Shown here: piece after piece, positions 2,859 to 27,457 of the stretch
Layout: each line of letters starts with the position of its first letter
How positions within the stretch are numbered: position 1 is the stretch's first letter
Origin: Nanobdellota archaeon
GTDB lineage: Archaea > Nanobdellota > Nanobdellia > Pacearchaeales > JAHJTO01
Length of the DNA stretch: 64,000 bases
Assembly (NCBI GenBank): GCA_042572295.1
Contig: JBHPFA010000002.1
Location: forward strand, 64,180-128,179
Reading direction: 5' to 3'
The notes under the pieces: model-generated
What the model was told of the DNA's origin: nothing
The model's database searches: none
The model's input: the letters and a program-made list of their open reading frames with translations, nothing else
Program-made: the position numbers and the translations under genes

Positions 2859-3197
2859 ATGGGAGAAATAGCTAATAGATTAAGAGATAAGATGATTCTT
2901 TATATTGGAAAGGGGTCAAAGAACCTATACTTGGATACTCCAGAAAAGGACTTGATGGATAGGGTTTTGAAAAAATGTGAAAGGACCGGTAAGCCTGCCT
3001 GTATTAGATTAAAGGGGAAAATTGGGATGGAGTTTAAAGAGATGTTTAATTATGATCAAGAGTATGTTTACTTTGGAGGGAAGCCCTTGGTAACAAGTAA
3101 TATTCCAGAATATAGATTAAGAAAACATTTGAAAGGCGTCCCACCACATCTTAAGGGACTTGCCACTAGTTATTTGGATGGTGGAAAGCAAAACTAA
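2859..3197 (+). CDS. Hypothetical protein (112 aa)
   Basis: ORF only. No family recognised. Confidence 0.4.
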   Translation: MGEIANRLRDKMILYIGKGSKNLYLDTPEKDLMDRVLKKCERTGKPACIRLKGKIGMEFKEMFNYDQEYVYFGGKPLVTSNIPEYRLRKHLKGVPPHLKGLATSYLDGGKQN

Positions 3198-3220
3198 TGA
3201 TTAAAAGTTTTAAATGAGAC

Positions 3221-3436
3221 ATGGTAAAGTTCAAATACAATAATATTGAAGAATTGATGGCAGATCCAGTTAAAGAGAAAGATCTCCAAAAAGAAGATCA
3301 AGACCATATTGTTGGAAAGCCAATAGAATATTGGAGGGCTGTCAAGGTCCAAGATAGGGGTGATATAATGGTTGCAAAGTATAGGCTGAATGAAAATGGT
3401 GAATTTATTTACCAAAAACCTAGGGATATCCACTAA
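3221..3436 (+). CDS. Hypothetical protein (71 aa)
   Basis: ORF only; acidic/lysine-rich. Confidence 0.35.
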   Translation: MVKFKYNNIEELMADPVKEKDLQKEDQDHIVGKPIEYWRAVKVQDRGDIMVAKYRLNENGEFIYQKPRDIH

Positions 3437-3598
3437 ATATCAGTTCGCTTAATCAATGTTGTACGAACTATTGGGGCTTAGGAGGAGTTTTTAGCTATTT
3501 TGTGGCTAGTTTTGAAAGACTTGTGATATCTGACCTATCAAGGTGTAAGTTATTGGGATTTTGAGGGAATTTTTCTGCAAAAAAGCACTGATTTTTTG

Positions 3599-3646
3599 GA
3601 TTTTACTCATGCTAAAACTTTTAGCTGATGATTAAAGGTTTTAGCT
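3599..3646. repeat. 48-bp direct repeat, copy 1
   Basis: gattttactcatgctaaaacttttagctgatgattaaaggttttagct is identical to 4016-4063. It contains the palindrome GCTAAAA-C-TTTTAGC and abuts the stop of the 3645..3881 gene. Confidence 0.9.
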
Positions 3647-3881
3647 ATCTGTTTTTCTTACCATAAAGCAAGTTTTCCCAGTAAGTTAATACCTGCCAAA
3701 ATAGGGCAATTAATCCAGATACTAATAAAAGTAAGAAAATGAACTCAAAAAGTGTGGCATCTTCTGGTAGTCCAATTATTGGAACCAAAATTAAGAAAGC
3801 GACTGCACCCATGATAGCACCCTTTTGCCAAGGCCTTCTATTTTGCCACCAATTTTTCTTGATTCTTTGCTTTTTTGCCAT
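3645..3881 (-). CDS. Small membrane protein (78 aa)
   Basis: Basic N-terminus MAKKQRIKKNWWQNRRPWQK followed by two hydrophobic helices. Preferred over the overlapping + ORF 3739..3921. Confidence 0.45.
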   Translation of the reverse strand: MAKKQRIKKNWWQNRRPWQKGAIMGAVAFLILVPIIGLPEDATLFEFIFLLLLVSGLIALFWQVLTYWENLLYGKKNR

Positions 3882-4015
3882 CTTTTATGAACTATTCAGG
3901 AGTTTTTATAGATCTCTGTGAAAGTTAGCTGGTTCTGGCTGGATATATGTGATTTCGCAGTGTGTTTTTGTGATTTTTGACCGGCCTTTGGCCAGATTTT
4001 TGCTGGATTTTTGTT

Positions 4016-4063
4016 GATTTTACTCATGCTAAAACTTTTAGCTGATGATTAAAGGTTTTAGCT
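4016..4063. repeat. 48-bp direct repeat, copy 2
   Basis: Identical to 3599-3646. It lies just 3' of the minus-strand pair 4100..4396 / 4397..4633. Confidence 0.9.
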
Positions 4064-4099
4064 TTTAAAGTTATGAAAATGCGTTGGTTTTTCGTATTT

Positions 4100-4396
4100 T
4101 TATCGACGATTTTTTGACGTTTCTAAAGGGGTATCCCCATATGCTCCGGAAGTGTCAAAACAATAGGGGCAATCTCCAAAAATTTTTCTCCCTTTTGTTA
4201 AAGGAGCACGACATTTACCAGGCTTTACAATATATTCACAATCTTTTACCTTGCCTTCTAATTGATGGGTGAAAGAATCATATCCAATAAAAATTTGGGG
4301 ATTTGCAGGAGTTGTTAAGCAGCCTTCCCCTTCCTCAGTTCTTCCACTACATAAGAGATTACTGAGATCTATTCTAAGAGGAGATTTTTTACCCAT
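4100..4396 (-). CDS. Cys-rich small protein (98 aa)
   Basis: Six Cys, including CPYC. Its start directly abuts the stop of 4397..4633, so they are probably co-transcribed. Confidence 0.4.
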   Translation of the reverse strand: MGKKSPLRIDLSNLLCSGRTEEGEGCLTTPANPQIFIGYDSFTHQLEGKVKDCEYIVKPGKCRAPLTKGRKIFGDCPYCFDTSGAYGDTPLETSKNRR

Positions 4397-4633
4397 TTAT
4401 TTCTTCCTTTTATTTCTTTTTTTGTATTTTCTATGGGCCCAACCTACTGCTGAGCCGATTACTGCTCCAAGTAATGTGATAATCAAAATTGTGATAATTA
4501 TTGCCAAAAGCCTAACCACGATTGGCACTACAAAGTAAGCAACAATTAATAAAAATGCAATCAAGGCCCCTCTTGGTCCTGCGTCTAAATTATCCCAAAG
4601 CATTCTCCATCCAGTTATTTCGTTTTTTGCCAT
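4397..4633 (-). CDS. Small membrane protein (78 aa)
   Basis: MAKNEITGW..., a long hydrophobic core, then the basic tail HRKYKKRNKRKK. Preferred over the + ORF 4269..4538. Confidence 0.45.
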   Translation of the reverse strand: MAKNEITGWRMLWDNLDAGPRGALIAFLLIVAYFVVPIVVRLLAIIITILIITLLGAVIGSAVGWAHRKYKKRNKRKK

Positions 4634-4689
4634 TTTTCTCTTTTTTATTTTACCGTCGACAAACAGCTTTTTAGCAAAATGATGAGGGC

Positions 4690-4727
4690 TGTTTAAGCTG
4701 TTTAAACAGTTGTTTAAGGGTGTTTAA
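4690..4727. promoter_or_regulatory. Array of four phased TGTTTAA boxes (putative operator) in a divergent intergenic region
   Basis: TGTTTAA occurs at 4690, 4699, 4711 and 4721 (spacing 9/12/10 bp), including the palindromic CTGTTTAAACAG. The array lies between the divergent starts at 4633 (-) and 4803 (+). Confidence 0.55.
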
Positions 4728-4802
4728 AGTTAATAAATCTTTGCTTATAATAAGAATATCTAACGAAGGATTTAAATACTAGAAATGGCCTATTTATAGA
4801 CG

Positions 4803-5426
4803 ATGGTTTGGTGGTTATTTTCGTCAAAAGAGGAGCACAATGACCTTAAGACAGAGGTTAAACAGGCTTTCTCAGCGGTTAAAGGTGATCTAAAGAAGGC
4901 TTCTGATTGGATCACTCATTTAAACACCCGTGACAAACACCATGAACATGGTGTTGAAGAGATACATGAGCGTTTATCCTCTATGGAAGAGGAGATTTCT
5001 GAAATGAAAGGCTTTATTGCTTTCTTTTCTACTAAGATGTCCAAACAGCTGTTTAAACAGCGTCAAACAGGTGTTCATAAACAGACAGCTGTTGAAGGTG
5101 TCCAAACACCTGTTCAAACAGCTGTCCAAAGTTCATTTTTACAAAATTTGAGTGTTATGGAAAGAGCAATTGTATGGACTTTACTGAATACTGACCTGAA
5201 ATTGAGTTGTGATGATATATCTTCAATTTTGAACAAAGAGAGGAGTACAGTTAGGGGACAGATCAATTCAATAAAACAGAAGAGTGAGGGCCTTATAGAT
5301 GAGGTCTTAGAAAAGAGTGGAAAAAAGCGATTTTTTATACCTGAAGAGGTAAGGGAAACAGTATTCTCGAAGATGAAAGCTGATAAGGGCTCAAGGAAAA
5401 AACGAAAAAGAGAGAGTGAGTATTAA
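4803..5426 (+). CDS. Coiled-coil / winged-helix DNA-binding protein (paralog of 5991..6779)
   Basis: N-terminal heptad-like region, a Q/K/T/V-rich linker, a C-terminal wHTH-like segment (MERAIVWTLLNTDLKLSCDDISSILNKERSTVRGQINSIKQK) and a shared tail motif (FFIPEEVR versus LKIPPELR in the paralog). TATA-like tttaaata lies at 4771-4778. Confidence 0.55.
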   Translation: MVWWLFSSKEEHNDLKTEVKQAFSAVKGDLKKASDWITHLNTRDKHHEHGVEEIHERLSSMEEEISEMKGFIAFFSTKMSKQLFKQRQTGVHKQTAVEGVQTPVQTAVQSSFLQNLSVMERAIVWTLLNTDLKLSCDDISSILNKERSTVRGQINSIKQKSEGLIDEVLEKSGKKRFFIPEEVRETVFSKMKADKGSRKKRKRESEY

Positions 5427-5430
5427 GCAG

Positions 5431-5483
5431 TTAAACGAACTTCTATTTCTAATTAAACGAACTAAGATGCATGTTAAACGAAC
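5431..5483. repeat. Three direct iterons TTAAACGAACT
   Basis: Copies start at 5431, 5453 and 5474 (spacing 22 and 21 bp), immediately after the stop of 4803..5426. Confidence 0.85.
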
Positions 5484-5489
5484 TAAATG

Positions 5490-5900
5490 ACGACAAAATG
5501 AAAAAAGTGAGAGTTAGAAAGTATGAATAAAGGGTAGAAAATGGTAAAAATGAGCGAAAAGAGGCTTAAGTGTGGCAAAAAGTGAGAGATCTGGGTAGAT
5601 ATAAGGCAGGATAGTAGGAAGTGGGGCCTAAAGGGGAGAAAAATAGGCCATTTTAGAGCAAAAAGTGAGGAATAAGTACGCTTAATCGATAAGTGTGGTA
5701 TGAAAATAGTGAAAAATGAGGTATTTTGATAAAAATAGAGGTTTATGTAGGAAAGAAAGTCCAGTTTTGGTAAGAAAGTGAGAGATAAGCTAGTTAATCG
5801 GTTAAACGAAAAACTGCAGTTTTTAAGGCTTAAACTACTTTGGAGGACAATTTGACTTATTTTGGGTGGTAAGTTGAAAGGAATGTGAGATTTTCTCACA
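5490..5900. repeat. Purine-rich (C-poor on + strand) non-coding region with dispersed AAAGTGAGAG repeats
   Basis: AAAGTGAG(A/G)G occurs at 5504, 5578, 5662 and 5775. TTAAGTGTGG/ATAAGTGTGG occurs at about 5567 and 5689. An inverted GTGAG-ATTTT-CTCAC lies at 5885-5899. The 138-aa minus ORF here is low-complexity and judged spurious. Confidence 0.7.
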
Positions 5901-5990
5901 CTTTGATCCTAAAGTTAACAAAAAATCGCTGATTTTTCATAAAAATATTCCTTAAATTTTTGTAGAATTAAGCCTTAATTCATCAAATTC

Positions 5991-6779
5991 TTAATCTCTA
6001 GTAAATTTATTTAGATCTGTATCTTTACTCAGTCCTCTGATACGCATAAGATTGTCTAACGTAGCCAGATTCCGTAGTTCTGGAGGTATTTTTAGTACAG
6101 TAGTCTTATTATTTAGCCTATTTTTGAGTATTGGTATGCCTTTTTGAGTAATCCTTCTTATATAGTCCCTAATGCTGGAAGAGGTTAAACTAGTCCTTAC
6201 AGCGAGATCTTGATAAGTTACTTGATTTTGTGTTTTATCGACGGTAAAAAGCACTGAAAATATGAAGAATTCTTGCTTCGTTAATGACTCAAATTTCTGC
6301 TTTAAGTCTGATTTCAGTGTGTCCATGAGTTTGGTTAAGTTGCTTATTTGAGTATTTTGTTCGCTTTTATCTGTCGAAGTGTCGAAGAATGTGTCTATGT
6401 GTCGAAGTTTTTCAGGGATGTGTCGAAGATGTGTCGAAGAATGTGTCGAAGTTTCGGGTTGAGGGTTTTGATGAATAGTCGGTTTACCGTCGAGTGGAAA
6501 TAAGGGGGTGTTGTCTGTCTGTGTGTCTATGTGTCGAAGTGTCTGAACCCCTTCATTTCCAGTGGAACTTTCTGGTAAAAGGTTCGTTTTAATTGAGTTA
6601 TTCGGTATTTGGGGAAGTTCTTCTGGATTCATAGACTTTTTTACTAGAATATCATAACGAAGTTCGTTTAATTCTTCTTTTAGTCTGTTAATTTCTTCTT
6701 TTATCCCTTTAATTTCAGAAAAAAATGAAATTTCTTCCTCTTTTTCATTATTTCTAGGATCCATGAATGAGTAGAACAC
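5991..6779 (-). CDS. Coiled-coil / winged-helix DNA-binding protein (paralog of 4803..5426)
   Basis: N-terminal coiled coil (EEINRLKEELNELRYD), a repeat-bearing linker and a C-terminal wHTH-like segment (VTYQDLAVRTSLTSSSIRDYIRRITQKGIPIL). Confidence 0.55.
   Translation of the reverse strand: MFYSFMDPRNNEKEEEISFFSEIKGIKEEINRLKEELNELRYDILVKKSMNPEELPQIPNNSIKTNLLPESSTGNEGVQTLRHIDTQTDNTPLFPLDGKPTIHQNPQPETSTHSSTHLRHIPEKLRHIDTFFDTSTDKSEQNTQISNLTKLMDTLKSDLKQKFESLTKQEFFIFSVLFTVDKTQNQVTYQDLAVRTSLTSSSIRDYIRRITQKGIPILKNRLNNKTTVLKIPPELRNLATLDNLMRIRGLSKDTDLNKFTRD
6371..6541. repeat. Seven copies of (T)GTGTCGAAG embedded in the 5991..6779 coding region
   Basis: GTCGAAG starts at 6373, 6381, 6401, 6422, 6433, 6445 and 6533. 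On the coding strand CTTCGACAC is read in all three frames (TSTH, SSTH, LRHI, FFDT). Confidence 0.85.
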
Positions 6780-6813
6780 AATTAGCTTAAATATTTTGTT
6801 GTATCTGATTGGA

Positions 6814-7122
6814 TTATATATAAGTGTGGTCTTTCTCGTCGTATTTTAGGTTTTGATCATGTACTCTTTGGTATGCTTGGAAAGTATTATTTGTTAATCT
6901 CCAACGTATTCTTCTCAAATAAATTACTCCGCTTGCATTTTTTTTCACGCCAGCGATAAGATTTCCTTTCTCCATTTCAATAAGAAGTCTTTTTAGAAAC
7001 TCTTCATCTCTTGCCATATGCATAGCAATCTCCGACGTGAAAAGGGCTTTCGGAGAGTTTCTAAATAGAACAGACAGTACCTCTTCTTTAATACGATCAA
7101 TTTTATCTTGAGATATTCGCAT
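6814..7122 (-). CDS. Small winged-helix protein (102 aa)
   Basis: SPKALFTSEIAMHMARDEEFLKRLLIEMEKGNLIAGVKK...IRWRLT has an HTH-plus-wing-like pattern. Confidence 0.5.
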   Translation of the reverse strand: MRISQDKIDRIKEEVLSVLFRNSPKALFTSEIAMHMARDEEFLKRLLIEMEKGNLIAGVKKNASGVIYLRRIRWRLTNNTFQAYQRVHDQNLKYDEKDHTYI

Positions 7123-7208
7123 TTTGTTTCAAAGAAACTCTACTATAAAAGTTATTCGGTATAACTACTAACAAAAACATTTAAAACGAACGTTTGGATG
7201 CTTTTTTG

Positions 7209-7796
7209 ATGGCTAGATATCATTCACTTAGGGCAATTTCATGGAATCAAGCTGCTCCAAAGGGAAACGCAGGGAAGGGAATATATGGTGATGAAAAAAA
7301 TAAATTAAATAAAGAGGCCCAAAAAAGAGCTATGAGAAAACTGCCCCCTAAGGATCCAATCTTTGAAAGGAAGAAAAGACTCGATAAAGTAAGGCCCCTT
7401 GCGGAGATTATAAAAAGAAAATTTAAGGAATGCAGGAAAAAAACGAATTATTCTGGTCCTGAAGAGGAAGCATATGTGCCAAGAAAAGAATATGCTAATT
7501 TTTGGTGTCAACAAACTAGGAAAATTAAGGGTACACCAAAAGCAAATGCCTTGATTTGTTTCATTATTGAGATTGAAACTGGAAATCTACTAGAAAGACT
7601 GGTTGATATGGGCACTATTAGAGACACTAATCGTACAAAAAAGACTTTGCTTGAAACTTATGAGCAAAAAATTTCTAATTATGCTGCAGTTTTAGGGAAA
7701 AAAGGGAAGGAATACAAATCTTTGATGTATGGAGTTCTTAAAATACAACCAAAATTTGAATTTAAGCCTTCAAAATTAAAGGCTTACAAGAAATAA
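7209..7796 (+). CDS. Hypothetical basic protein (195 aa)
   Basis: The ORF track starts at a TTG (7194). The ATG at 7209 sits 22 nt after the TATA-like tttaaaac (7180-7187). No family recognised. Confidence 0.45.
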   Translation: MARYHSLRAISWNQAAPKGNAGKGIYGDEKNKLNKEAQKRAMRKLPPKDPIFERKKRLDKVRPLAEIIKRKFKECRKKTNYSGPEEEAYVPRKEYANFWCQQTRKIKGTPKANALICFIIEIETGNLLERLVDMGTIRDTNRTKKTLLETYEQKISNYAAVLGKKGKEYKSLMYGVLKIQPKFEFKPSKLKAYKK

Positions 7797-7801
7797 TTGA
7801 A

Positions 7802-8533
7802 TTATTTAGTAGAAGTTTTCCAAAGTATGTCAAAATAATCTCTGTATGCATCTGCTGCTGATTTATTTTCTATGATTATTGCTTCTGGAATGTCTGTCCA
7901 AAGAATTACTGAGACTTTATTTCCATAAATGTTTGTTGAGACTACACTTTCTTTGATATTTCTTGCAAAAAATCTTATTTCCATATTTTTATTTGGAGTT
8001 TGAGGTGGAGAATCTTTTCTTACTAGACGTTTTATCTTTATATTGTTCTTATCTAAACCTTTTAAGAAGTATGGAAGATAATATGCCATTTTCTCTCGGA
8101 ATTTCCCTGAAGAATCGATTACTAAATTCTCTTGCCCCTTCGCTTCCTTTAGAATATCTTCAAAGACTGCTTTTATTCCCTTGAATCCTTTATACATTGT
8201 AACGTTATGTTTATCTTTTTCTTTTTTGTGTAAGGCATTTAATTCTGGAATTATTATTTCTATCTCCTCTTGCTTTTCTTTTAAGATTTCTACTAACCTT
8301 TGTGGAGATATTGCTTTGAACATTTTTCTATTTGATTCAAGAGCATAAGAAACTAATCCTTTTTTCAATAATTTCCTTAGTGCATCATAACAAGATGTTC
8401 TGTCAATCATTGCTTCCTTTGCAATCTTACCTGCCATCTCTTGTCCAAGTCTAAGAAGTGTTAGATATATCTTTGCTTCATTGTGACTTAGGCCATATTT
8501 TTCTAATATTAGTCTTATGTTTTCGTATTCCAT
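7802..8533 (-). CDS. TrmB-family transcriptional regulator
   Basis: LGLSHNEAKIYLTLLRLGQEMAGKIAKEAMIDRTSCYDALRKLLKKGLVSY is the typical TrmB N-terminal wHTH, followed by a C-terminal effector-like domain. Confidence 0.85.
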   Translation of the reverse strand: MEYENIRLILEKYGLSHNEAKIYLTLLRLGQEMAGKIAKEAMIDRTSCYDALRKLLKKGLVSYALESNRKMFKAISPQRLVEILKEKQEEIEIIIPELNALHKKEKDKHNVTMYKGFKGIKAVFEDILKEAKGQENLVIDSSGKFREKMAYYLPYFLKGLDKNNIKIKRLVRKDSPPQTPNKNMEIRFFARNIKESVVSTNIYGNKVSVILWTDIPEAIIIENKSAADAYRDYFDILWKTSTK

Positions 8534-8997
8534 TATATTTTCCTAGTTAAGATGATCATTTCATCTTTGTATTTTGCTTTTTTCCATGCACTAAGTGCTG
8601 CTTTGTTGTGTAGATCAACTAAAAGTTCAACAATTTTAATATTTTTTGACCTGAAAAACTTCTCAAATGCTTTGACTAGCTTGTTCCCTATGCCTCCTTT
8701 CTGACATTTGGGGTCAACTGCTGCTTCTGAGATATAACCATACCTTTTGAATTTGACAAAAGGGGGATATTCCTTTATTTTTCCAACTGCGTAAGCTAAG
8801 ATTTTTCCGTTTTCTTCATAAACTAGTGCAAGAGAATTTCCTCCCTTCATGAATCCTGTAAGTTTTTCTTTAAAGTAAGCCATTTCTTTGGGGCTAAAAA
8901 AGTGCCTTTTTGGATTGCATTTTATATGGTGCTTTATGAAGTATTTGTGTAGCTCCAGTATTCTGTCTATGTCTTGAGACTTAGCTTTCCTTATCAT
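8533..8997 (-). CDS. GNAT-family N-acetyltransferase
   Basis: AVDPKCQKGGIGNKLVKAFEKF matches the acetyl-CoA binding motif A (Q/RxxGxG/A). Confidence 0.85.
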   Translation of the reverse strand: MIRKAKSQDIDRILELHKYFIKHHIKCNPKRHFFSPKEMAYFKEKLTGFMKGGNSLALVYEENGKILAYAVGKIKEYPPFVKFKRYGYISEAAVDPKCQKGGIGNKLVKAFEKFFRSKNIKIVELLVDLHNKAALSAWKKAKYKDEMIILTRKI

Positions 8998-8998
8998 G

Positions 8999-9625
8999 TT
9001 ATCTCCATTCCTTTTCGAACTGTTTTATAAAGATCTTTAGAAAATTTAGGTAGCTTTTGGCAATTTTCCTGGCTTCCTTAGTGTAAAAATCTTTTAAATC
9101 AAGTAAGAGCATGCATTTTAGAAATTCGAAGATGCTATCTGTATTGTAATCATAGAAACTAGTTAGCACTCTTGAGCCATCTGAGTGGATAATCATATCA
9201 TCTGCATGTTCAACAGCAGTTCTTAGGATACCCATTGCTCCCAAAATGTCAATTTTGTCTGCATCTTGAAGAATTTTTGCTTCAATTGTTGTAGGTTTTT
9301 TGCCTTTGCTTTTCCTATGAACAGAGATACAGTGGACAACTGCTTGAATCTTATTTTTTGGGAAGTTAACTTTCTTTAAGATTTGGGGAGCCATTTTTGC
9401 ACCCTCTTCTGCGTGGTCCTTGCATTTCTTTTGTTCTTGCTTTCTTCTTGCAATATCATGTAAGAGAGTTGCGGCCCTTATTATTTGTAAGTCCACTTTC
9501 TTTTCAGTTCTTGCAATTTGGAGTGCATATCTGTAGACTCTTTGAGTATGGTGGAAGTCGTGACCACCTTTTTTATCAAAATGTTTCCTTGCTTCTTTTT
9601 CAATTTGTTGAGTTAATTGATCCAT
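8999..9625 (-). CDS. HD-domain metal-dependent phosphohydrolase
   Basis: HHTQRVYRYALQIA...AATLLHDIAR...DADKIDILG contains the H...HD...D motifs. Confidence 0.85.
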   Translation of the reverse strand: MDQLTQQIEKEARKHFDKKGGHDFHHTQRVYRYALQIARTEKKVDLQIIRAATLLHDIARRKQEQKKCKDHAEEGAKMAPQILKKVNFPKNKIQAVVHCISVHRKSKGKKPTTIEAKILQDADKIDILGAMGILRTAVEHADDMIIHSDGSRVLTSFYDYNTDSIFEFLKCMLLLDLKDFYTKEARKIAKSYLNFLKIFIKQFEKEWR

Positions 9626-19352: not shown

Positions 19353-19368
19353 TGAATTCTTATTTTTT

Positions 19369-19449
19369 GCTGAGATGGCAGAATGGTATTGCATCGGTCT
19401 CGAAAACCGAGCCCTCACGGGTCCGAAGGTTCGATTCCTTCTCTCAGCG
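19369..19449 (+). tRNA. tRNA-Ser (anticodon CGA), type II with long variable arm; no encoded CCA
   Basis: Hand-folded. Acceptor GCTGAGA/TCTCAGC, D stem GCAG/TTGC, anticodon stem TCGGT/ACCGA with loop CTCGAAA, 14-nt variable arm GCCCTCACGGGTCC, T arm GAAGG-TTCGATT-CCTTC, discriminator G. Confidence 0.88.
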
Positions 19450-19484
19450 TCAAAATTTAAATACATAGATATTCTTCTTCTTAT

Positions 19485-20607: not shown

Positions 20608-20820
20608 TAAATAATAAATAGGTAAATTGTTTATAAATGTTTCTATGATTTTAGGGTTATTTCAGTCACTAATTTTTAAAGGGATTATTTGTAAAATGAG
20701 GGAGAAAATGGTAAAGATTGGTTAAAGAAAGAGTATATTTGAAGATCTTTATTAGTTATATTATTAAAAGAGTAATAGTCGTAGTATAATTGGATTAAAA
20801 GAACTAATTAAAAATAAGGG

Positions 20821-20849
20821 GTGTGTCCCCCTTGTTTCTCATGGAAAGG
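20821..20849 (-). repeat. ORB-like box 1
   Basis: The reverse complement reads ...TTTCCATGAGAAACAAGGGGGACACAC: a TCCA..GAAAC core plus a G-string. Confidence 0.55.
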
Positions 20850-20973
20850 TTTAAAAAGAAAACTCAAAATCTCTTCTTTATTCTTTATTTATATTTATAA
20901 ATATTTATATTATATATTATATATATTATATTATTATATACCTCATTTTTACGACGAGAGACACTGTTTTAAC

Positions 20974-20997
20974 CTCCACTGGAAACCAGGGTGTCTC
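20974..20997 (+). repeat. ORB-like box 2
   Basis: CTCCACTGGAAACCAGGGTGTCTC, bracketed by the inverted repeat GAGAGACAC / GTGTCTCT. Confidence 0.6.
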
Positions 20998-21055
20998 TAC
21001 CTTAAGATTTTTCCATTTATTTTTAGTAATTCTTACAAGCATTTATAAGCAAACT

Positions 21056-21076
21056 CTCCATTGGAAGCATAGGTTG
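21056..21076 (+). repeat. ORB-like box 3
   Basis: CTCCATTGGAAGCATAGGTTG, in the same orientation as box 2. Confidence 0.5.
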
Positions 21077-21176
21077 TTAAAGTAAGTATTTGAACAAGGA
21101 TATATTTATAAAAAGTATTGGGTAATTTTCTTTGTTGAATAATTACTTCAACAAAACTCTTAAAGGAGGTTGATAA

Positions 21177-22385
21177 ATGGGTGTTGAACTTGATGACATA
21201 TTTGATTCGTTTACAAAGAATAGTATCTTTCAAGATAAACATGTTCTTCAAGCAAACTATAATCCTGAAACAATCCCCCATAGGGATGATCAAATAAAAC
21301 AAATTGCTGCAATTCTTGCTCCAACATTAAGATTAGACAAACCTTCAAACCTTTTTATCTATGGAAAGACTGGAACTGGAAAAACTTTGTCTGTTCAATA
21401 TGTTTGTAATCAATTAGAGAAAAGGGCTAAACAAAATAAAGCTAATTTGAAGTTTTTTTATATTAATTGCAAACTGAAAAAGGTAGCAGATACTGAATAT
21501 AGGATTCTTGCAGAGCTATTAAGACAATTAGGCAAGCAAGTTCCTTCTACTGGGCTACCTACCGATCAAATTTATCATAGATTTATTCAAACAATTGATG
21601 ATTCAAAAAAATTGATTGTTATTGTTTTAGATGAAGTTGATCAAGCAGTTAAAAAGATTGAAGATAACTTTCTTTATAACTTAACAAGATTAAATTCAGA
21701 ATTAAAAAACTCTCAATTAACAATTATAGGTATAAGTAATGATTTAGTTTTCTTAGACAATGTAGATCCCCGTGTAAAGAGTTCTCTTTCTGAAGAAGAA
21801 ATTGTTTTTCCACCATACAATGCATTACAAATACAAGATATTTTAAGAGAAAGGGCGAAGCTTGCATTTAAAGAAAAAGCTATTGGCGATGGAGTTATAG
21901 AGAAATGTTCTGCATATGCTGCTAGGGAACATGGAGATGCTAGGAGGGCCTTAGATTTGTTAAGGATTGCTGGAGAACTTACAGAAAGGGAAGGGAAAAA
22001 GGAAGTAAATATAAATTATATTGATTCTGCTAAACAAAAAATAGAGAAAGATAAGATTATAGATATTATTTCAACACAACCTAAACAATTTCAATTAGTT
22101 TTGTTAGCAATTATGGCTCTTACTGATTCTAGGAAGAATGAGAAGATATTTACTGGGGACACTTTTAATTCATATCGTGATTTTTGTGAACAAACTGGAA
22201 CAGAGCCTTTAACACAAAGGCGTGTTGGAGATATTCTGTCTGAGTTTGATATGTTGGGTATAATAAATGCTCAAGTTGTAAGTAAAGGGAGACATGGAAG
22301 GACAAAAGAGATCAAACTTTCAATCCCTCCTCATTTAATAAATAAATCAAAGATAATAGTTAGGGATTCATTAGGTTTAAAGTAA
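21177..22385 (+). CDS. cdc6: Orc1/Cdc6 replication initiator
   Basis: PHRDDQIKQIA, Walker A YGKTGTGKT, Walker B VIVLDEVD, sensor motifs and a C-terminal winged helix. SD aggaggt lies 6 nt upstream. Confidence 0.95.
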   Translation: MGVELDDIFDSFTKNSIFQDKHVLQANYNPETIPHRDDQIKQIAAILAPTLRLDKPSNLFIYGKTGTGKTLSVQYVCNQLEKRAKQNKANLKFFYINCKLKKVADTEYRILAELLRQLGKQVPSTGLPTDQIYHRFIQTIDDSKKLIVIVLDEVDQAVKKIEDNFLYNLTRLNSELKNSQLTIIGISNDLVFLDNVDPRVKSSLSEEEIVFPPYNALQIQDILRERAKLAFKEKAIGDGVIEKCSAYAAREHGDARRALDLLRIAGELTEREGKKEVNINYIDSAKQKIEKDKIIDIISTQPKQFQLVLLAIMALTDSRKNEKIFTGDTFNSYRDFCEQTGTEPLTQRRVGDILSEFDMLGIINAQVVSKGRHGRTKEIKLSIPPHLINKSKIIVRDSLGLK

Positions 22386-22413: not shown

Positions 22414-24012
22414 ATGAATAGTGCAGAAGCATTTTTGAGAGAAGGTATTCTGGTAGATCCAGATGTTAGTGAACACCTTAAGGGTGTTAAAGTCCCCCTA
22501 GTCGAAATTATCAAAAGTTTAGATATTAATTTTTTATCAAGAAAAGGTTTAATGGATAATTATTATAAAATAAGACTAATTCTAGAAAATCTTAAAGATA
22601 GGAAAGGTCCTGGAGAAAAAGGTGCTATAGAAGAAACAATTAACTTTCTTTCAACATTCTCTAATGAAGGGTCTTCTCAATTGCAAGTTCAAAAAGAAGA
22701 AGAGAAGAAAGAAGAAGAGACTGTTTTGAATATTTGTAAAAAAGATTTCTTTTCTAGAAAAATAAAAATCTTGAAATGTTATAATTCAGTTCCAAGGGAA
22801 ATTAATGTACAGGATTTTGTAGGTTATTTTAAAGCAAGATATAATTCAATCAAATCAATGTTAAAAGAACACACAGATTTACCAAATTTAACCTTAATCA
22901 ACAAGCTTTCTCAAAATAATAAGAACATTTCTATTATTGGGATGGTTATTAGTAAAAGAGTTACAAAAAATAAAAATGTTCTTTATGAAGTGGAGGATTT
23001 AACTGGTAGAATTAAAATTCTTGTTAATATAAATAAACCAGAATTAATTGAGATGACTAAAGAAATTCTTCTTGATGAAGTTGTTGGATTCAAATGTAGT
23101 GGAAGTTCGGAAATTTTATTTGTAAATGATATTGTTTTTCCAGGTGTTGATACTCTTTCAAGAAAAAAGTCGCTTTCAGAGGAGGAGATTTATGCAGCTT
23201 TTATTTCAGATGTTCATTTAGGCTCAGATGTATTCTTAGAAGAGAATTTTGTAAAATTTATTGATTGGATTAATGGAAAAACTGGAACAGATGAACAAAA
23301 AGCCCAAAGTAAGAAAATAAAATATCTTTTTATGACTGGGGATAATGTTGATGGAGTGGGTATTTTTCCTGGACAAGAGACAAAATTAAAAATTACAGAC
23401 TTGAGAGAACAATATTCAAAATTAACTGAACTTCTTAAGAAGATTAGGAAGGAGATTACAATAATTATGTGTCCTGGACAGCACGACTCTGTTAGGCTTG
23501 GAGAACCTCAACCACCTATCGGGGAAGAATATGCTGAAGAGCTTTGCAGGATGGAAAATGTGATAATGGTGAGTAATCCTGCGATGGTGGAAATTGATGC
23601 AGCACCAGGGAAAGATGGAATTAAAGTTCTGATGTATCATGGTGCTAGTTTTCATGCGATAGTTAATGAAATTGAGGAATTACGTTTAGGAAATGCAAGA
23701 AGAGAACCAACTAAAATTGTAAAGTATGTATTAAAGAAAAGACATTTAGGAATTCCTCATTTGAATACTGTACATATTCCTTATCCAGATGTGGATCCAT
23801 TGGTTATTGATGAAATGCCTGACGTAATTGTTACAGGGGATTTACATAGAACTGATGTTGCTAACTATAAAGGGGTTTTGATGGTTGCTTCTTCTTGTTG
23901 GCAACCCCAAACAGATTTTGAGGCCAAGGTAGGAAATGTTCCAGACCCTTGTAAAGTTCCATTACTTAATCTTAAAGATTGGAGGGTTAAGATTTTAGAT
24001 TTTAGTAGTTAA
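22414..24012 (+). CDS. polB: DNA polymerase II (PolD) small subunit DP1
   Basis: OB-fold plus calcineurin-like phosphoesterase motifs (FISDVHLGS, MTGDNVDG, PGQHD, YHGAS). It sits immediately upstream of DP2. Confidence 0.93.
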   Translation: MNSAEAFLREGILVDPDVSEHLKGVKVPLVEIIKSLDINFLSRKGLMDNYYKIRLILENLKDRKGPGEKGAIEETINFLSTFSNEGSSQLQVQKEEEKKEEETVLNICKKDFFSRKIKILKCYNSVPREINVQDFVGYFKARYNSIKSMLKEHTDLPNLTLINKLSQNNKNISIIGMVISKRVTKNKNVLYEVEDLTGRIKILVNINKPELIEMTKEILLDEVVGFKCSGSSEILFVNDIVFPGVDTLSRKKSLSEEEIYAAFISDVHLGSDVFLEENFVKFIDWINGKTGTDEQKAQSKKIKYLFMTGDNVDGVGIFPGQETKLKITDLREQYSKLTELLKKIRKEITIIMCPGQHDSVRLGEPQPPIGEEYAEELCRMENVIMVSNPAMVEIDAAPGKDGIKVLMYHGASFHAIVNEIEELRLGNARREPTKIVKYVLKKRHLGIPHLNTVHIPYPDVDPLVIDEMPDVIVTGDLHRTDVANYKGVLMVASSCWQPQTDFEAKVGNVPDPCKVPLLNLKDWRVKILDFSS

Positions 24013-24019
24013 TTAAAAA

Positions 24020-27000
24020 ATGCAGAAATATTTTAAAGAAATTGAGAATAAAGTAAAGGTTGCTTACTCTTTAGCAGGAGAAGCACGTAGAAAAGGGTAT
24101 GATCCTGTTTCTGCTGTTGAAATTCCTTTGGCAACTAGTTTGGCAGAAAGAGTTACTGGGTTAATTTCTACTAAGTATGCTCAATTAAAAGATGATAAGA
24201 TAGTAAAGAGGATTAGGGAACTTGAAACACAGTATAGTATGTTGGATCCTGCTGTAGCATTTAAGATTTCTGAAGAAGTTTCTAAAGAAAAGTTTTGTAA
24301 ATTTAAAGATAAGCTTGAAGCGATTGATGCGGGAATAAGAATAGGTTTAGCATATCTTACTTTAGGGGTCGTTTCTTCACCTTTAGAAGGGTTCACACAT
24401 TTTAAATTAAAAAAGACTGAGAAGGGCGAGGATTTTTTTTCAATTTTCTTTTCAGGACCAATAAGGTCAGCAGGGGGAACTGCAGCAGCAACCTGTGTAG
24501 TTCTAGCAGATTATTTGAGGGAAAATGCAGGTTATGCAAGATATGATCCTACTGAAGCAGAGGTTAATAGAACTGTTACAGAGTTATATGATTATCATGA
24601 GAGGGTTACTAACCTACAATATCTTCCTACTGAAAAAGAAATTAAGATTATTGCTTCAAATCTTCCAATTCAAATAAATGGAGATCCTTCAGAAAAGTTT
24701 GAGGTAAGTAATTTTAAAGATCTTCCAAGAATTGAAACAAATATTATTAGAAATGGTGTTTGTTTGGTTACTGGAGAAGGTGTTGCATTAAAGGCTGCAA
24801 AGCTTTTGAAAATTGTTAGAAATTTGAAAGAAAAAGGATTTGTTTTGACTGGTTGGGATTGGCTTTCAGATTTGGCTAAAATGAAGAAAGTTGCAGAAAC
24901 AAAACCAGAACCTTCTGCAGTTTATATTAAAGACTTGGTTGCAGGAAGGCCGGTTTTAACACACCCATCAAGATCTGGTGGATTTAGGTTAAGGTATGGC
25001 CGGGCAAGGAATAGTGGATTTAGTGCAACTTCTATTCATCCTGCATCAATGGTGGCATTGGATAATTTTATTGCAATAGGTACACAACTAAGAACTGAAA
25101 GACCAGGAAAATCTACAGTAGTAACTAGTTGTGATACTATTGAAGGTCCAATTATTAAATTAAAAGATGGGTCTGTGGTTGTTCCAAAAACCTATGAGGA
25201 AGCTAAAGAAATCAAAAAAGATATACTTGAAATTCTTTACCTTGGAGATATTTTAATTAGTTATGGAGATTTCTTTAATAGAAATTACCCTTTGATGCCT
25301 TGTGGATATAATGAAGAATGGTGGGGTTTGGAAGTTGAAGAGAAAAAGGGCAAGGTTAAAGATTTTTTGAATGTAAGTTTTGAAGAAGCAGTAGAATTCA
25401 GTAAAAAATATGATGTTTCACTTTATCCAAAATATACTTTTTATTGGAGTCAGGTAAATCACAATTCTTTTATGGCTTTATTGAAAGTTCTTAAAACTTC
25501 TAAGTTAGAAAATGGAGAAATAGTGTTTGATTATGTAGAAAGTGTTAATAAAGCAAAGCGTTGCTTGGAAATTTTGGGAGTTCCCCATTTAGTTAAGGAA
25601 GGTAGAGTTATAATTGATAAAGAAAATTCTAAATATTTACTTTTGAATTTAGGAGTAGAAAAACTTTCAGAAGTTGATAAAATGATTGGGCAGCATGAAG
25701 ACCGTGAAGGTGTTTTAAATTTCCTAAATAGTTTTTTGAAAATAAAAATTGCAGATAAGGCTGGAACTTTTGTTGGATCAAGAATGGGAAGGCCTGAAAA
25801 AGCAAAAATGCGTAAATTAATTGGTTCTCCACATACTTTATTTCCAGTTGGACAAGAAGGGGGGAGATTTAGGAGTGTACAGGAGGCAGCGGAACACCAA
25901 GTTACTTCTGAGTTTCCAATTCATTTTTGTGAGACTTGTAAAAAAGAGACTATCTACTTTATTTGTGAAGATTGTGGAAATAAAACTAAAAAGTTGTTAA
26001 ATTGTCCAAAATGTGAAAGAAATGTAACTGAAGTTTGTCCAGAGCATGGTGGTCTTCAAGCAGGAGTAGTTAAATCTTATATGAGGAAGAAAGTAGATAT
26101 AGGTCATTATCTCCAATCTGCTGCAAAATTAATGAATATTCAAAAACATGAAATTCCTCCTCTAATTAAAGGAACAAAAGGGATACTTTCTTCAAACCGT
26201 ATTCCAGAACATTTGGCTAAAGGAATTTTACGTGCACAATATGCAATTAATGTGAATAAAGATGGGACTGCTAGGTATGATGCAACAGAATTGCCTATAA
26301 CTCATTTTAAACCATGTGAGGTGGGTACTTCTATTCCAAGGCTTATTGAGTTGGGTTATACTAAAGATGCCTATGGAAAGAAATTAGAAAGGAAGGATCA
26401 AATTTTAGAAATATTTCCCCAAGATATTATTCTTCCAGATTGTCCAGAAACACCTGATATCAAAGCAAGTGAGGCCTTTTTGAAGGTTGCAAAATTTATG
26501 GATAATCTCCTTGTCAGACTTTATGGGCTCAAACCATTTTATAATGCTAGCACTAAAGAAGATCTTACTGGACATTTGATGGTTTGTATTGCCCCACATA
26601 ATGCTGCAGGGGTCGTTGCAAGAGTTATAGGCTTTAGTCATGCTCAGGCTTTGTTGGCAAGCCCATATATGCACGGGGCTATGAGGAGAGATGCTGATGG
26701 GGATGAAGCTGCTTTTATGTTGTTACTAGATACATTAATCAATTTTTCTAGAGAATATCTTTCTACACATAGGGGTGCAACCCAGGATTGTCCAATTATT
26801 TTGAATGCAAGGATAAGGGCTGGAGAAGTTGATGATATGGTGTTTAATATTGACGTTACTCCAAGACTTCCATTAGAACTTTATCGTGCTGCTCAAGAGT
26901 ATAAACCTCCACATAGTGTTAAGGTGGAACAAATAAGTGATAGGCTTGGAAAGACAGATAGTGATGCTTTCAAGAATTTATGGTTTTCCCATGATACAAC

Positions 27001-27457
27001 TGATATGAATTATGGAGCAATTTGTTCAGCATATAAAACTTTGGCAACTATGGCCGAAAAGGTTGAACATCAAATGAAACTTGCAGAGATAATTCGTGCA
27101 GTTGATACTACTGATACTGCAAGATTGGTTATTGAGAGACATTTTATTAGAGACACAAGGGGTAATTTAAGAAAATTTAGTAGTCAACAATTTAGATGTA
27201 TTGGATGTAATGCTAAATTTAGAAGGCCACCTTTGGTGGGGAAATGTACTAGTTGTGGTGGAAAAATAATATTTACGATTTCAAAAGGAAGTATCATTAA
27301 GTATTTAGATCATTCACTTAATCTTGCTAAGAATTATAGTGTTTCAGATTATCTTAAACAAAGTTTGGATTTAACAAAAAGTTTTATCAATAGTATTTTT
27401 GGCAAGGATATTGATAAGCAGGTTACAATGAAGCAATGGTTTGGGGAAAAGAGTTAA
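24020..27457 (+). CDS. polC: DNA polymerase II (PolD) large subunit DP2
   Basis: 1145 aa with conserved PolD DP2 blocks (GPIRSAGGTAAA, GRPVLTHPSR, SRMGRPEK, Cys clusters CETCKKET...CEDCG and CIGCNAKF...CTSCGG). No intein-sized insertion. Confidence 0.95.
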   Translation: MQKYFKEIENKVKVAYSLAGEARRKGYDPVSAVEIPLATSLAERVTGLISTKYAQLKDDKIVKRIRELETQYSMLDPAVAFKISEEVSKEKFCKFKDKLEAIDAGIRIGLAYLTLGVVSSPLEGFTHFKLKKTEKGEDFFSIFFSGPIRSAGGTAAATCVVLADYLRENAGYARYDPTEAEVNRTVTELYDYHERVTNLQYLPTEKEIKIIASNLPIQINGDPSEKFEVSNFKDLPRIETNIIRNGVCLVTGEGVALKAAKLLKIVRNLKEKGFVLTGWDWLSDLAKMKKVAETKPEPSAVYIKDLVAGRPVLTHPSRSGGFRLRYGRARNSGFSATSIHPASMVALDNFIAIGTQLRTERPGKSTVVTSCDTIEGPIIKLKDGSVVVPKTYEEAKEIKKDILEILYLGDILISYGDFFNRNYPLMPCGYNEEWWGLEVEEKKGKVKDFLNVSFEEAVEFSKKYDVSLYPKYTFYWSQVNHNSFMALLKVLKTSKLENGEIVFDYVESVNKAKRCLEILGVPHLVKEGRVIIDKENSKYLLLNLGVEKLSEVDKMIGQHEDREGVLNFLNSFLKIKIADKAGTFVGSRMGRPEKAKMRKLIGSPHTLFPVGQEGGRFRSVQEAAEHQVTSEFPIHFCETCKKETIYFICEDCGNKTKKLLNCPKCERNVTEVCPEHGGLQAGVVKSYMRKKVDIGHYLQSAAKLMNIQKHEIPPLIKGTKGILSSNRIPEHLAKGILRAQYAINVNKDGTARYDATELPITHFKPCEVGTSIPRLIELGYTKDAYGKKLERKDQILEIFPQDIILPDCPETPDIKASEAFLKVAKFMDNLLVRLYGLKPFYNASTKEDLTGHLMVCIAPHNAAGVVARVIGFSHAQALLASPYMHGAMRRDADGDEAAFMLLLDTLINFSREYLSTHRGATQDCPIILNARIRAGEVDDMVFNIDVTPRLPLELYRAAQEYKPPHSVKVEQISDRLGKTDSDAFKNLWFSHDTTDMNYGAICSAYKTLATMAEKVEHQMKLAEIIRAVDTTDTARLVIERHFIRDTRGNLRKFSSQQFRCIGCNAKFRRPPLVGKCTSCGGKIIFTISKGSIIKYLDHSLNLAKNYSVSDYLKQSLDLTKSFINSIFGKDIDKQVTMKQWFGEKS

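Follow-up and report, generated by a model that had tools for sequence, protein, structure and literature searches.

In Thermococcales, a cluster in which origin recognition boxes (ORBs) occur together with mini-ORBs lies within the coding sequence of dp1 and is bound by Cdc6/Orc1 both in vivo and in vitro (PMC1904270). The Pyrococcus cluster is not the initiation site, and its organization is conserved across the order (Matsunaga et al. 2007, PMC1904270). A mini-ORB has the core TTCC...GAA (PMC1904270), and some haloarchaeal ORBs are followed by long GT stretches (PMC1868953). Here, we describe a DNA element in a 64-kb stretch of a Nanobdellota archaeon (contig JBHPFA010000002.1, positions 64,180 to 128,179; the whole stretch is called the window below). 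Positions 6371–6569 (~200 bases), inside a gene for a 257-amino-acid (aa) protein, form a composite cis-acting nucleotide element that overlies the code for a disordered protein linker. The element consists of an inverted pair of ORB-type boxes (E1 and E2) and a tract of 8–9-nt direct repeats whose coding strand is rich in A+C. Whatever the repeat units encode in their three reading frames is tolerated by the linker peptide. Comparison of homologous loci makes it very probable that the element is under constraint, and has a function, at the nucleotide level, while the proposal that this function involves the initiator Orc1/Cdc6 is evenly balanced.

Like the dp1 cluster, the element places ORB-type boxes in a protein-coding gene near the chromosomal origin (oriC), with an organization conserved across related genomes. 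The host here, however, is a MarR-like winged-helix gene located 5.7–14.5 kb from cdc6, whereas dp1 lies inside a 5-kb origin region, and the boxes are accompanied by a non-ORB 8–9-nt repeat that occupies fixed positions, is read in three frames and evolves in concert. Moreover, the element belongs to DPANN archaea, and binding is predicted from sequence, whereas it has been demonstrated in Thermococcales. Initiator boxes inside coding DNA would be of a kind already known, to which this locus appears to add a fixed-position repeat array, its concerted evolution and a DPANN regulator gene near oriC as the host.

Origins may also lie within initiator genes, as do ori-lambda in gene O, oriL of SPP1 in gene 38 and the pT181 origin in repC; the lambda iterons are recognized by the product of the gene in which they lie, and after them comes an AT-rich region in which replication begins. 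Our locus resembles ori-lambda in having an array of short repeats in the interdomain-linker code of a DNA-binding-protein gene, so that two codes overlap, but it has no AT-rich region, and binding by the gene's own product is a feature of lambda. The datA locus and DnaA-box clusters of E. coli are intergenic titration or regulatory clusters for the initiator outside the origin. The likeness to these would be one of function, i.e., a conserved chromosomal cluster of initiator boxes that is not an origin; they differ in the initiator (DnaA versus Orc1/Cdc6) and in being intergenic, and there is no sequence relationship.

The repeat was first described in an earlier note on this DNA, which listed seven copies read in three frames. 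Both the number and the order of the copies were confirmed: on the (+) strand, the word GTGTCGAAG starts at 6379, 6399, 6420, 6431, 6443 and 6531, and a variant, CTGTCGAAG, starts at 6371; the start coordinates given earlier (6373, 6381, ...) were ~2 nt too high. The exact and variant copies together span 6371–6539, with all exact copies confined to 170 nt, and the exact word occurs nowhere else in the 64 kb. When up to one mismatch was allowed, the window contained 12 matches versus 3.66 expected, a count reached in 0 of 100 shuffles, and the narrower word TTCGACA[CG] was found in this gene only. The host gene and the copies, with their distances from E1 and their readings on the coding strand, are as follows.

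5991–6764, (−) strand: host gene, 257 aa, from the list of open reading frames (ORFs); the called protein starts at ATG 6764
6531–6539, (−) strand: unit copy CTTCGACAC, +28 from E1, read L-R-H
6443–6451, (−) strand: unit copy CTTCGACAC, +116 from E1, read (T)-S-T-H
6431–6439, (−) strand: unit copy CTTCGACAC, +128 from E1, read (S)-S-T-H
6420–6428, (−) strand: unit copy CTTCGACAC, +139 from E1, read L-R-H
6399–6407, (−) strand: unit copy CTTCGACAC, +160 from E1, read L-R-H
6379–6387, (−) strand: unit copy CTTCGACAC, +180 from E1, read (F)-F-D-T
6371–6379, (−) strand: variant unit copy CTTCGACAG, +188 from E1, read S-T-D

With a GTG start, the host ORF extends over 5991–6779 on the same strand. 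The three-frame reading proposed earlier also held, with three copies of the coding-strand unit CTTCGACAC beginning at codon position 1 (L-R-H), three at position 2 (T/S-S-T-H and S-T-D) and one at position 3 (F-D-T), and the unit contains no stop codon in any of its frames. Since the copies stand in three frames here and at the same positions in relatives, an in-frame peptide repeat was rejected. Nor is the array an artifact of assembly, which the earlier note had considered, as independent assemblies (JGI, ENA, Logan and NCBI) contain the same arrangement. Every copy maps to one segment of the host protein: AlphaFold2 predicted an N-terminal helix forming a coiled coil (aa 4–45), a disordered linker with a predicted local distance difference test (pLDDT) score below 50 (aa 46–132), to which all copies belong, and a helix followed by a MarR-like winged helix with a pLDDT of 80–90 (aa 133–225).

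We found CTTCGACAC as an exact word in seven syntenic orthologues (63–72% aa identity), which contain 4–11 copies each, again in three frames; as to the comparison among orthologues that the earlier note had proposed, the relatives keep the DNA word and not the peptide. The word imposes unusual codons. In a reference of 10,247 codons from 18 large ORFs, the unit codons CGA (1.7% of Arg), TCG (1.7% of Ser), CAC (16% of His) and GAC (13% of Asp) are rare for this genome, and the same applies to the box codons TCC (4.9% of Ser) and CTC (2.3% of Leu). At columns with an invariant amino acid, pairwise codon identity in the linker was 0.89 versus 0.51 expected from codon usage. The corresponding values for the folded C-terminal domain were 0.56 and 0.47, indicating that synonymous sites there are close to saturation; despite this near-saturation, nine orthologues share one and the same unit consensus. 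Selection on the peptide would give the reverse pattern, with stronger synonymous constraint in the folded domain than in the disordered linker.

Further analysis with the unit pattern T[CT]C[AG][AG]CA[CG] revealed that, in the window clade and the nearer subfamilies (roughly 42–100% identical), units occupy shared positions relative to E1 (+20, +28, +36, +51, +62, +96, +104, +116, +128, +139, +160, +168, +180 and +188); in other subfamilies, they lie upstream of E1 or occupy fewer positions. The coding strand carries nearly all units, with antisense units numbering 0–2 per gene (0 in all but three genes) and 0.1–0.3 units per gene expected by chance. The positions are unchanged out to +180/+188 in about a dozen loci, including about six outside the window clade. 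Spacings are dominated by 8 nt (the basic period), 11, 12, 20 and 21 nt, of which the 11-, 12- and 21-nt spacings are roughly helically phased and the 8-nt subset is not. Given these spacings, units necessarily fall in all three frames, and because each fixed position is tied to one frame, the family must have been read in three frames for a long time. In one subfamily (loci L004, L007, L019 and L023), units lie upstream of E1 at about −93, −82, −71 and −52, and the coding strand of L004 carries a half-dyad duplication, TATTTCCATAGTTCCATAGGAAAT, immediately 5′ of E1.

The word itself is uniform within each genome, being TTCGACAC in the window clade and TCCAACAC, TCCAGCAC, TTCGGCAC or TCCAACAG elsewhere. 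Specifically, identity at the three variable sites of the unit was 0.90 between positions of one genome versus 0.59–0.61 between different genomes at the same position (permutation p < 1/2000). A switch of the word brings non-conservative amino acid changes that depend on the frame, namely P/S, Q/R, N/D and S/F (PTH/STH, LQH/LRH and SNT/FDT). This concerted change across copies, together with the word kept in three frames by orthologues and the almost frozen synonymous sites of the linker, bears out the view of the earlier note that the repeat is maintained at the nucleotide level. The tracts of the most distant members are likewise A+C-rich on the coding strand (0.69–0.81), with the units of L027 visibly in several frames, and in every member examined, E1 precedes an A+C-rich tract that repeats about every 8 nt.

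Direct repeats of this kind could also be a mutational by-product, i.e., a low-complexity linker made by slippage that serves as an evolvable spacer and in which only the peptide, or nothing, is selected. The 8-nt tandem core, (TTCGACAC)3 or (GACA)n, is typical of slippage, units differ by lineage, and the linker is predicted to be disordered. Nevertheless, we consider this explanation highly improbable. The 88-nt E1–E2 segment shows zero indels in the 14 homologues that carry both boxes (about 42–100% identical), whereas the N-terminal part of the same proteins has many; missing unit copies were lost through substitution, not deletion, with positions kept to +180/+188 in the nearer subfamilies; and neither the excess of synonymous identity in the linker over the folded domain nor the constant consensus of the nine orthologues is expected from it. 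Slippage may account for the origin of the tract but not for its fixed positions, its frozen synonymous sites or its maintenance, and the slippage or recombination hotspot with a variable linker put forward in the earlier note is unsupported as an ongoing process, as the homologues differ in this array by substitutions only.

Constraint on nucleotides that exceeds constraint on protein, in a segment to which AlphaFold2 gives no structure, might also mean that the central part of the ORF is not translated, with two genes or a misannotated non-coding element in its place. This suggestion, likewise made in the earlier note, is almost certainly wrong. A single open frame joins the conserved coiled coil and the conserved winged helix in 114 homologues of differing length, the lattice of units keeps the frame everywhere, and no stop codon occurs in the segment among the homologues examined. 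The host is a genuine, conserved gene of DPANN archaea, and those of the 114 homologues with names belong to Pacearchaeota, Woesearchaeota or Nanoarchaeota.

The repeats adjoin two boxes that the earlier note did not mention, nor did it mention the chromosomal origin 14 kb away. The boxes and the tract between them are as follows.

6546–6568, (−) strand: E1, ORB-like box, coding strand GTTCCACTGGAAATGAAGGGGTT, encoding S-T-G-N-E-G-V
6489–6509, (+) strand: E2, ORB-like box, GTCGAGTGGAAATAAGGGGGT, inverted relative to E1; the coding strand encodes T-P-L-F-P-L-D
6510–6545, (−) strand: tract between the boxes, GT-rich on the (+) strand; the coding strand is (GACA)n-like plus one unit

E1 consists of a palindromic dyad, TTCCA-C-TGGAA, and a G-string, and it has 0 mismatches to the pattern TTCCANNGGAAAYNNNGGGG. 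Its DNA, TTCCA-NN-GGAAAT-NNN-GGGGTT, was found at the same position of the gene, down to about 30% aa identity, in all 37 loci where the motif search located the gene (the window included, with three duplicate pairs); the search found no match in two further fetched loci, L006 and L026. Across the 37 loci, Ser is always encoded by TCC (4.9% usage), Gly always by GGA and then GGG (18% usage) and Val by GTT in all but one, while the variable residue (T, I, S or N) always has an A-N-N codon. The fixed codons and the A-N-N codon of the variable residue point to constraint at the DNA level. E2 has 2 mismatches to the E1 pattern, is part of an inverted repeat (I3), lies at a constant offset of 57 nt after the E1 start in the nearer subfamily and is likewise written in rare codons (ACC 6%, CCC 9%, CTC 2% and GAC 13%). 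The tract between the boxes encodes Q-T-L-R-H-I-D-T-Q-T-D-N and aligns among the 14 homologues without an indel. The first unit always adjoins the E1 G-string, and up to three tandem TTCGACAC units do so directly in orthologues.

E1 matches the published euryarchaeal ORB consensus, GTTCCAGTGGAAAC-AAA----GGGGG (PMC1868953). It also contains the conserved TTCC and GAA motifs of the mini-ORB core (GTTCCACTGGAAAT), and the (+) strand at 6557–6569, TTCCAGTGGAACT, is identical to a P. abyssi mini-ORB (PMC1904270). Shared with published archaeal ORBs are the dyad TTCCA-N-TGGAA, the GGAAA(T/C) sequence and, after a 3-nt spacer, a G-string 3′ of the dyad (GAA-GGGG in E1 and AAG-GGGGG in E2), the inverted pairing and, as in some haloarchaeal ORBs (PMC1868953), GT/AC-rich sequence after the G-string. 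The 3-nt spacer is shorter than in the published euryarchaeal consensus. In the orthologues L029 (6264–6283), L030 (6285–6304) and L036 (2167–2186), on the (−) strand of each locus, the E1 palindrome reads as an ORB in reverse too (TTCCAGTGGAGATTTCGGGG), with G/C-strings on both sides of E1; the window retains only a degenerate upstream string, TTCTGGT.

The constraint might instead act on the mRNA, in which the CUUCGACAC words and an E1/E2 hairpin would control translation or stability, either as targets of a small RNA or an RNA-binding protein or by slowing ribosomes. Consistent with this, nearly all units lie on the coding strand, many codons are rare, and the two boxes could form a 12-bp stem, as RNA or as a cruciform, in which one pair is compensatory. 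However, E1 persists without E2 in many homologues, and the stem therefore cannot be a universal function; the 3-nt spacers of the boxes neither pair nor covary, and the covariation term is only −0.18 kcal/mol. Units of other clades use common codons (CCA ACA and CAA), which speaks against rare-codon pausing as a general role, and the match to ORBs and to the boxes of oriC is a signature at the level of DNA. A scan of 3000–9000 against Rfam at permissive thresholds gave chance-level matches only, none of them on the element. Taken together, these results make an mRNA-level role improbable.

The window offers a comparator for the boxes, as a region directly upstream of orc1/cdc6 has the standard archaeal origin layout and a Pyrococcus-like gene order and is likely, from these features, to be the chromosomal oriC. 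Its features are as follows.

20610–21176: likely chromosomal oriC, directly upstream of orc1/cdc6
20827–20846, (−) strand: left ORB-like box of oriC, TTCCATGAGAAACAAGGGGG followed by ACACAC, 1 mismatch to the E1 pattern
20851–20940: AT-rich unwinding tract of the putative oriC, where G+C falls to its minimum for the window (1.7% over 60 nt at 20877)
20974–20993, (+) strand: right ORB-like box of oriC, CTCCACTGGAAACCAGGGTG followed by TCTC, 2 mismatches to the E1 pattern
21177–22385, (+) strand: orc1/cdc6 (Pfam Cdc6_C, Cdc6_lid and AAA)
22414–24012: PolD DP1
24020–27457: PolD DP2 (NCBIfam DNA polymerase II large subunit)

Near 21058 there is a third box, CTCCATTGGAAGC, which is weaker. A pattern built from E1 alone, with up to two mismatches allowed, had five matches in the window versus 0.14 expected, namely E1, E2, both oriC boxes and one site in a TrmB-family gene. 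In L037, a Pacearchaeote whose protein is 44% identical, the same pattern matched the two oriC boxes and E1 only, with 0.04 matches expected. The oriC boxes are followed by ACAC or GTGTC-type sequence. The TrmB-gene site (TTCTAAAGGAAGCGAAGGGG, 8135–8154, (−) strand, within the gene at 7802–8533) has 2 mismatches to the E1 pattern; it was not found in the TrmB genes of L038 and L039 and is therefore probably a chance match or lineage-specific. The PolD DP1 gene of the window contains a single, weak mini-ORB-like 13-mer, TTCCAAGGGAAAT (22790–22802, (+) strand), which, by analogy, may be a weak remnant of a Thermococcales-type dp1 cluster or a chance match.

These matches suggest that E1 and E2 could be bound by the cell's Orc1/Cdc6 initiator, as would their counterparts at the origin next to cdc6, 14 kb away. 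The repeats would then be phased accessory contacts for a complex nucleating at E1/E2, made by more Orc1/Cdc6 or by a partner protein. Such a cluster would resemble the dp1 cluster of Thermococcales in being a regulatory or initiator-binding site close to the origin, and it might hold the initiator near oriC and/or block transcription of the host DNA-binding-protein gene when occupied. Among the three readings offered in the earlier note, a binding-site array embedded in an ORF is thus the one that fits best as far as sequence can tell, while the slippage hotspot and the non-coding segment fall away.

The element departs from published ORB origins in that it lies inside an ORF, away from cdc6, with G-strings that face inward. 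It also lacks the AT-rich unwinding element that inverted ORBs flank at an origin: 37 nt of GT/AC-rich sequence separate the boxes, and a search in and beside the host gene found no AT-rich tract, the minimum G+C being 18% per 60 nt versus 1.7% at oriC. From the missing tract, the inward G-strings and the distance from cdc6, we infer that the cluster is not an origin. Several observations weigh against initiator binding. The layout is opposite to that of oriC, as the G-strings point toward each other and the boxes enclose no AT-rich tract. The repeat unit was looked for at oriC of this genome and not found, and it is therefore not an obligatory part of an Orc1 site. In the most distant members, E1 is retained, but the 8-nt units after it are different ones (ACATACCT/ACAAACCT and CAAGCAAA), and a lineage-specific unit means either that the binder co-evolves or that repetition or composition matters rather than the word. 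Concerted change could, likewise, reflect a co-evolving binder or templated conversion between copies, the latter requiring no such binder. To these may be added the possible E1/E2 hairpin with its covarying pair. Finally, a MarR-type dimer, e.g., the host gene's own product, could just as well use the E1 palindrome as its operator.

As an operator, the element would serve a local winged-helix protein, which may be the host product, the 102-aa protein encoded upstream (6814–7122) or the 207-aa paralogue (4803–5426). Bound to the E1 palindrome, to the direct repeats or to both, this protein would regulate its own gene by blocking transcription, and the likeness of E1 to ORBs would mean that the same protein also recognizes the origin boxes or that the two converged. 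The top Foldseek matches of the host protein are MarR-family proteins, which its C-terminal part resembles, and MarR-like dimers bind palindromes. The recognition helix, SSIRDY, is invariant across the family, as is E1; the unit word occurs inside this gene only within the 64 kb; synteny with the 102-aa gene and the paralogue holds in all orthologues; and the neighboring 550-nt spacer contains further conserved repeat arrays resembling binding sites. On the other hand, the helix is unchanged between clades with TTCGACAC, TCCAACAC or TCCAGCAC and does not track the unit in an alignment read by eye, with no formal test, and the match of E1 to the ORB consensus and to boxes flanking the oriC unwinding tract in two genomes is the signature of an initiator site. 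We therefore regard an operator as unlikely, though still a real possibility. Searches with the host protein gave only generic MarR-family folds in Foldseek, with no replication-initiator fold, a weak HTH_11 match in Pfam and, for a profile of the family against PDB sequences, coiled-coil noise.

The host gene belongs to a chromosomal block that is syntenic across Pace- and Woesearchaeota, in the order Lhr helicase, 102-aa protein, host gene, convergent ~205-aa paralogue and DUF5654, and the 102-aa gene and the paralogue accompany the host gene in all orthologues. The window is archaeal chromosomal DNA of low G+C (about 33%). The distance from the host gene to cdc6 is 14.5 kb here and 5.7 kb in L037, with Lhr-Metallophos-NUDIX synteny common to both, and the host gene remains linked to the origin. 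When IMG/VR viral contigs were scanned, E1 had 9 matches, all in unrelated ORFs or non-coding DNA and none with units, which provides no link to mobile elements. The chromosomal, syntenic context and the absence of a relative among the viral contigs speak against an iteron array of a mobile replicon.

A spacer of ~550 nt (5427–5990) between the host gene and the convergent paralogue is present in all orthologues and contains short conserved motifs amid diverged sequence. These include 5–6 copies of CTCTCACTTT on the (−) strand, three copies of GTTAAACGAAC at 21–22-nt spacing (5430–5440, 5452–5462 and 5473–5483) and palindromes at 5965–5981 (GAATTAAGCCTTAATTC, right after the stop codon) and 5885–5899 (GTGAGATTTTCTCAC). 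A 138-aa ORF at 5483–5899 looks spurious because it lies on the pyrimidine-rich strand. Judging by its motifs, the spacer may be a second binding-site array or an unannotated RNA.

The paralogue (4803–5426, (+) strand, 207 aa) likewise consists of a coiled coil, a linker and a winged helix. The DNA of its linker (~5038–5130) carries the unit T[TC]CAAACAG[CG]TGT, mostly in frame as V-Q-T-A, with earlier copies reading K-Q in another frame, and a sequence in the linker, GAAGGTGTCCAAACAC, resembles a degenerate tail of E1. When checked for the same phenomenon as in the host gene, the paralogue showed mainly an ordinary in-frame V-Q-T-A repeat and no decisive signal at the DNA level; its linker is built from common codons, and DNA-level constraint could therefore not be shown there.

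The sole tRNA of the window, tRNA-Ser(CGA) (19368–19451, (+) strand), decodes UCG, the rare Ser codon (1.7%) that the unit imposes several times on the host gene. In several relatives, genes for serine recombinases or tyrosine integrases recur 3–10 kb downstream of the locus, as follows.

L030, 9790–11115: serine-recombinase or tyrosine-integrase gene
L037, 19931–20690: serine-recombinase or tyrosine-integrase gene
L038, 12941–13726: serine-recombinase or tyrosine-integrase gene
L039, 13963–14958: serine-recombinase or tyrosine-integrase gene

In a more speculative scheme, which we consider doubtful, DPANN archaea would possess a hitherto unrecognized replication-control module made up of the 257-aa gene, including its internal ORB pair and repeats, its neighbors for the 102-aa protein and the 207-aa paralogue, and the repeat-filled 550-nt spacer; a MarR-like protein and Orc1/Cdc6 would co-assemble on a site inside the gene of that MarR-like protein. 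If so, the locus would be an archaeal chromosomal counterpart of the origin or iterons inside an initiator gene, as in lambda O, and its role could be that of a switch for licensing or titration or of a second origin that lies dormant, with the 8-nt GT-rich repeats forming a contact lattice that co-evolves with its binder.

Apart from the identity of the binder, the element shows with unusual clarity how a natural DNA segment can carry two codes at once. Synonymous change is more restricted in the linker than in the folded domain, and the peptide shifts non-conservatively with the DNA word, which is a warning for annotation and for inference based on the ratio of nonsynonymous to synonymous substitution rates (dN/dS). 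A gene, rather than the origin, contains the best ORB match of the region, and this match is conserved across an order-level radiation. To our knowledge, intragenic ORB clusters have so far been described for dp1 of Thermococcales only, and, if Orc1/Cdc6 binds here, they would extend to a second, very distant archaeal lineage. We know of no experimental work on replication control in the tiny, uncultivated Pace- and Woesearchaeota, for which the element supplies a concrete candidate site that can be synthesized.

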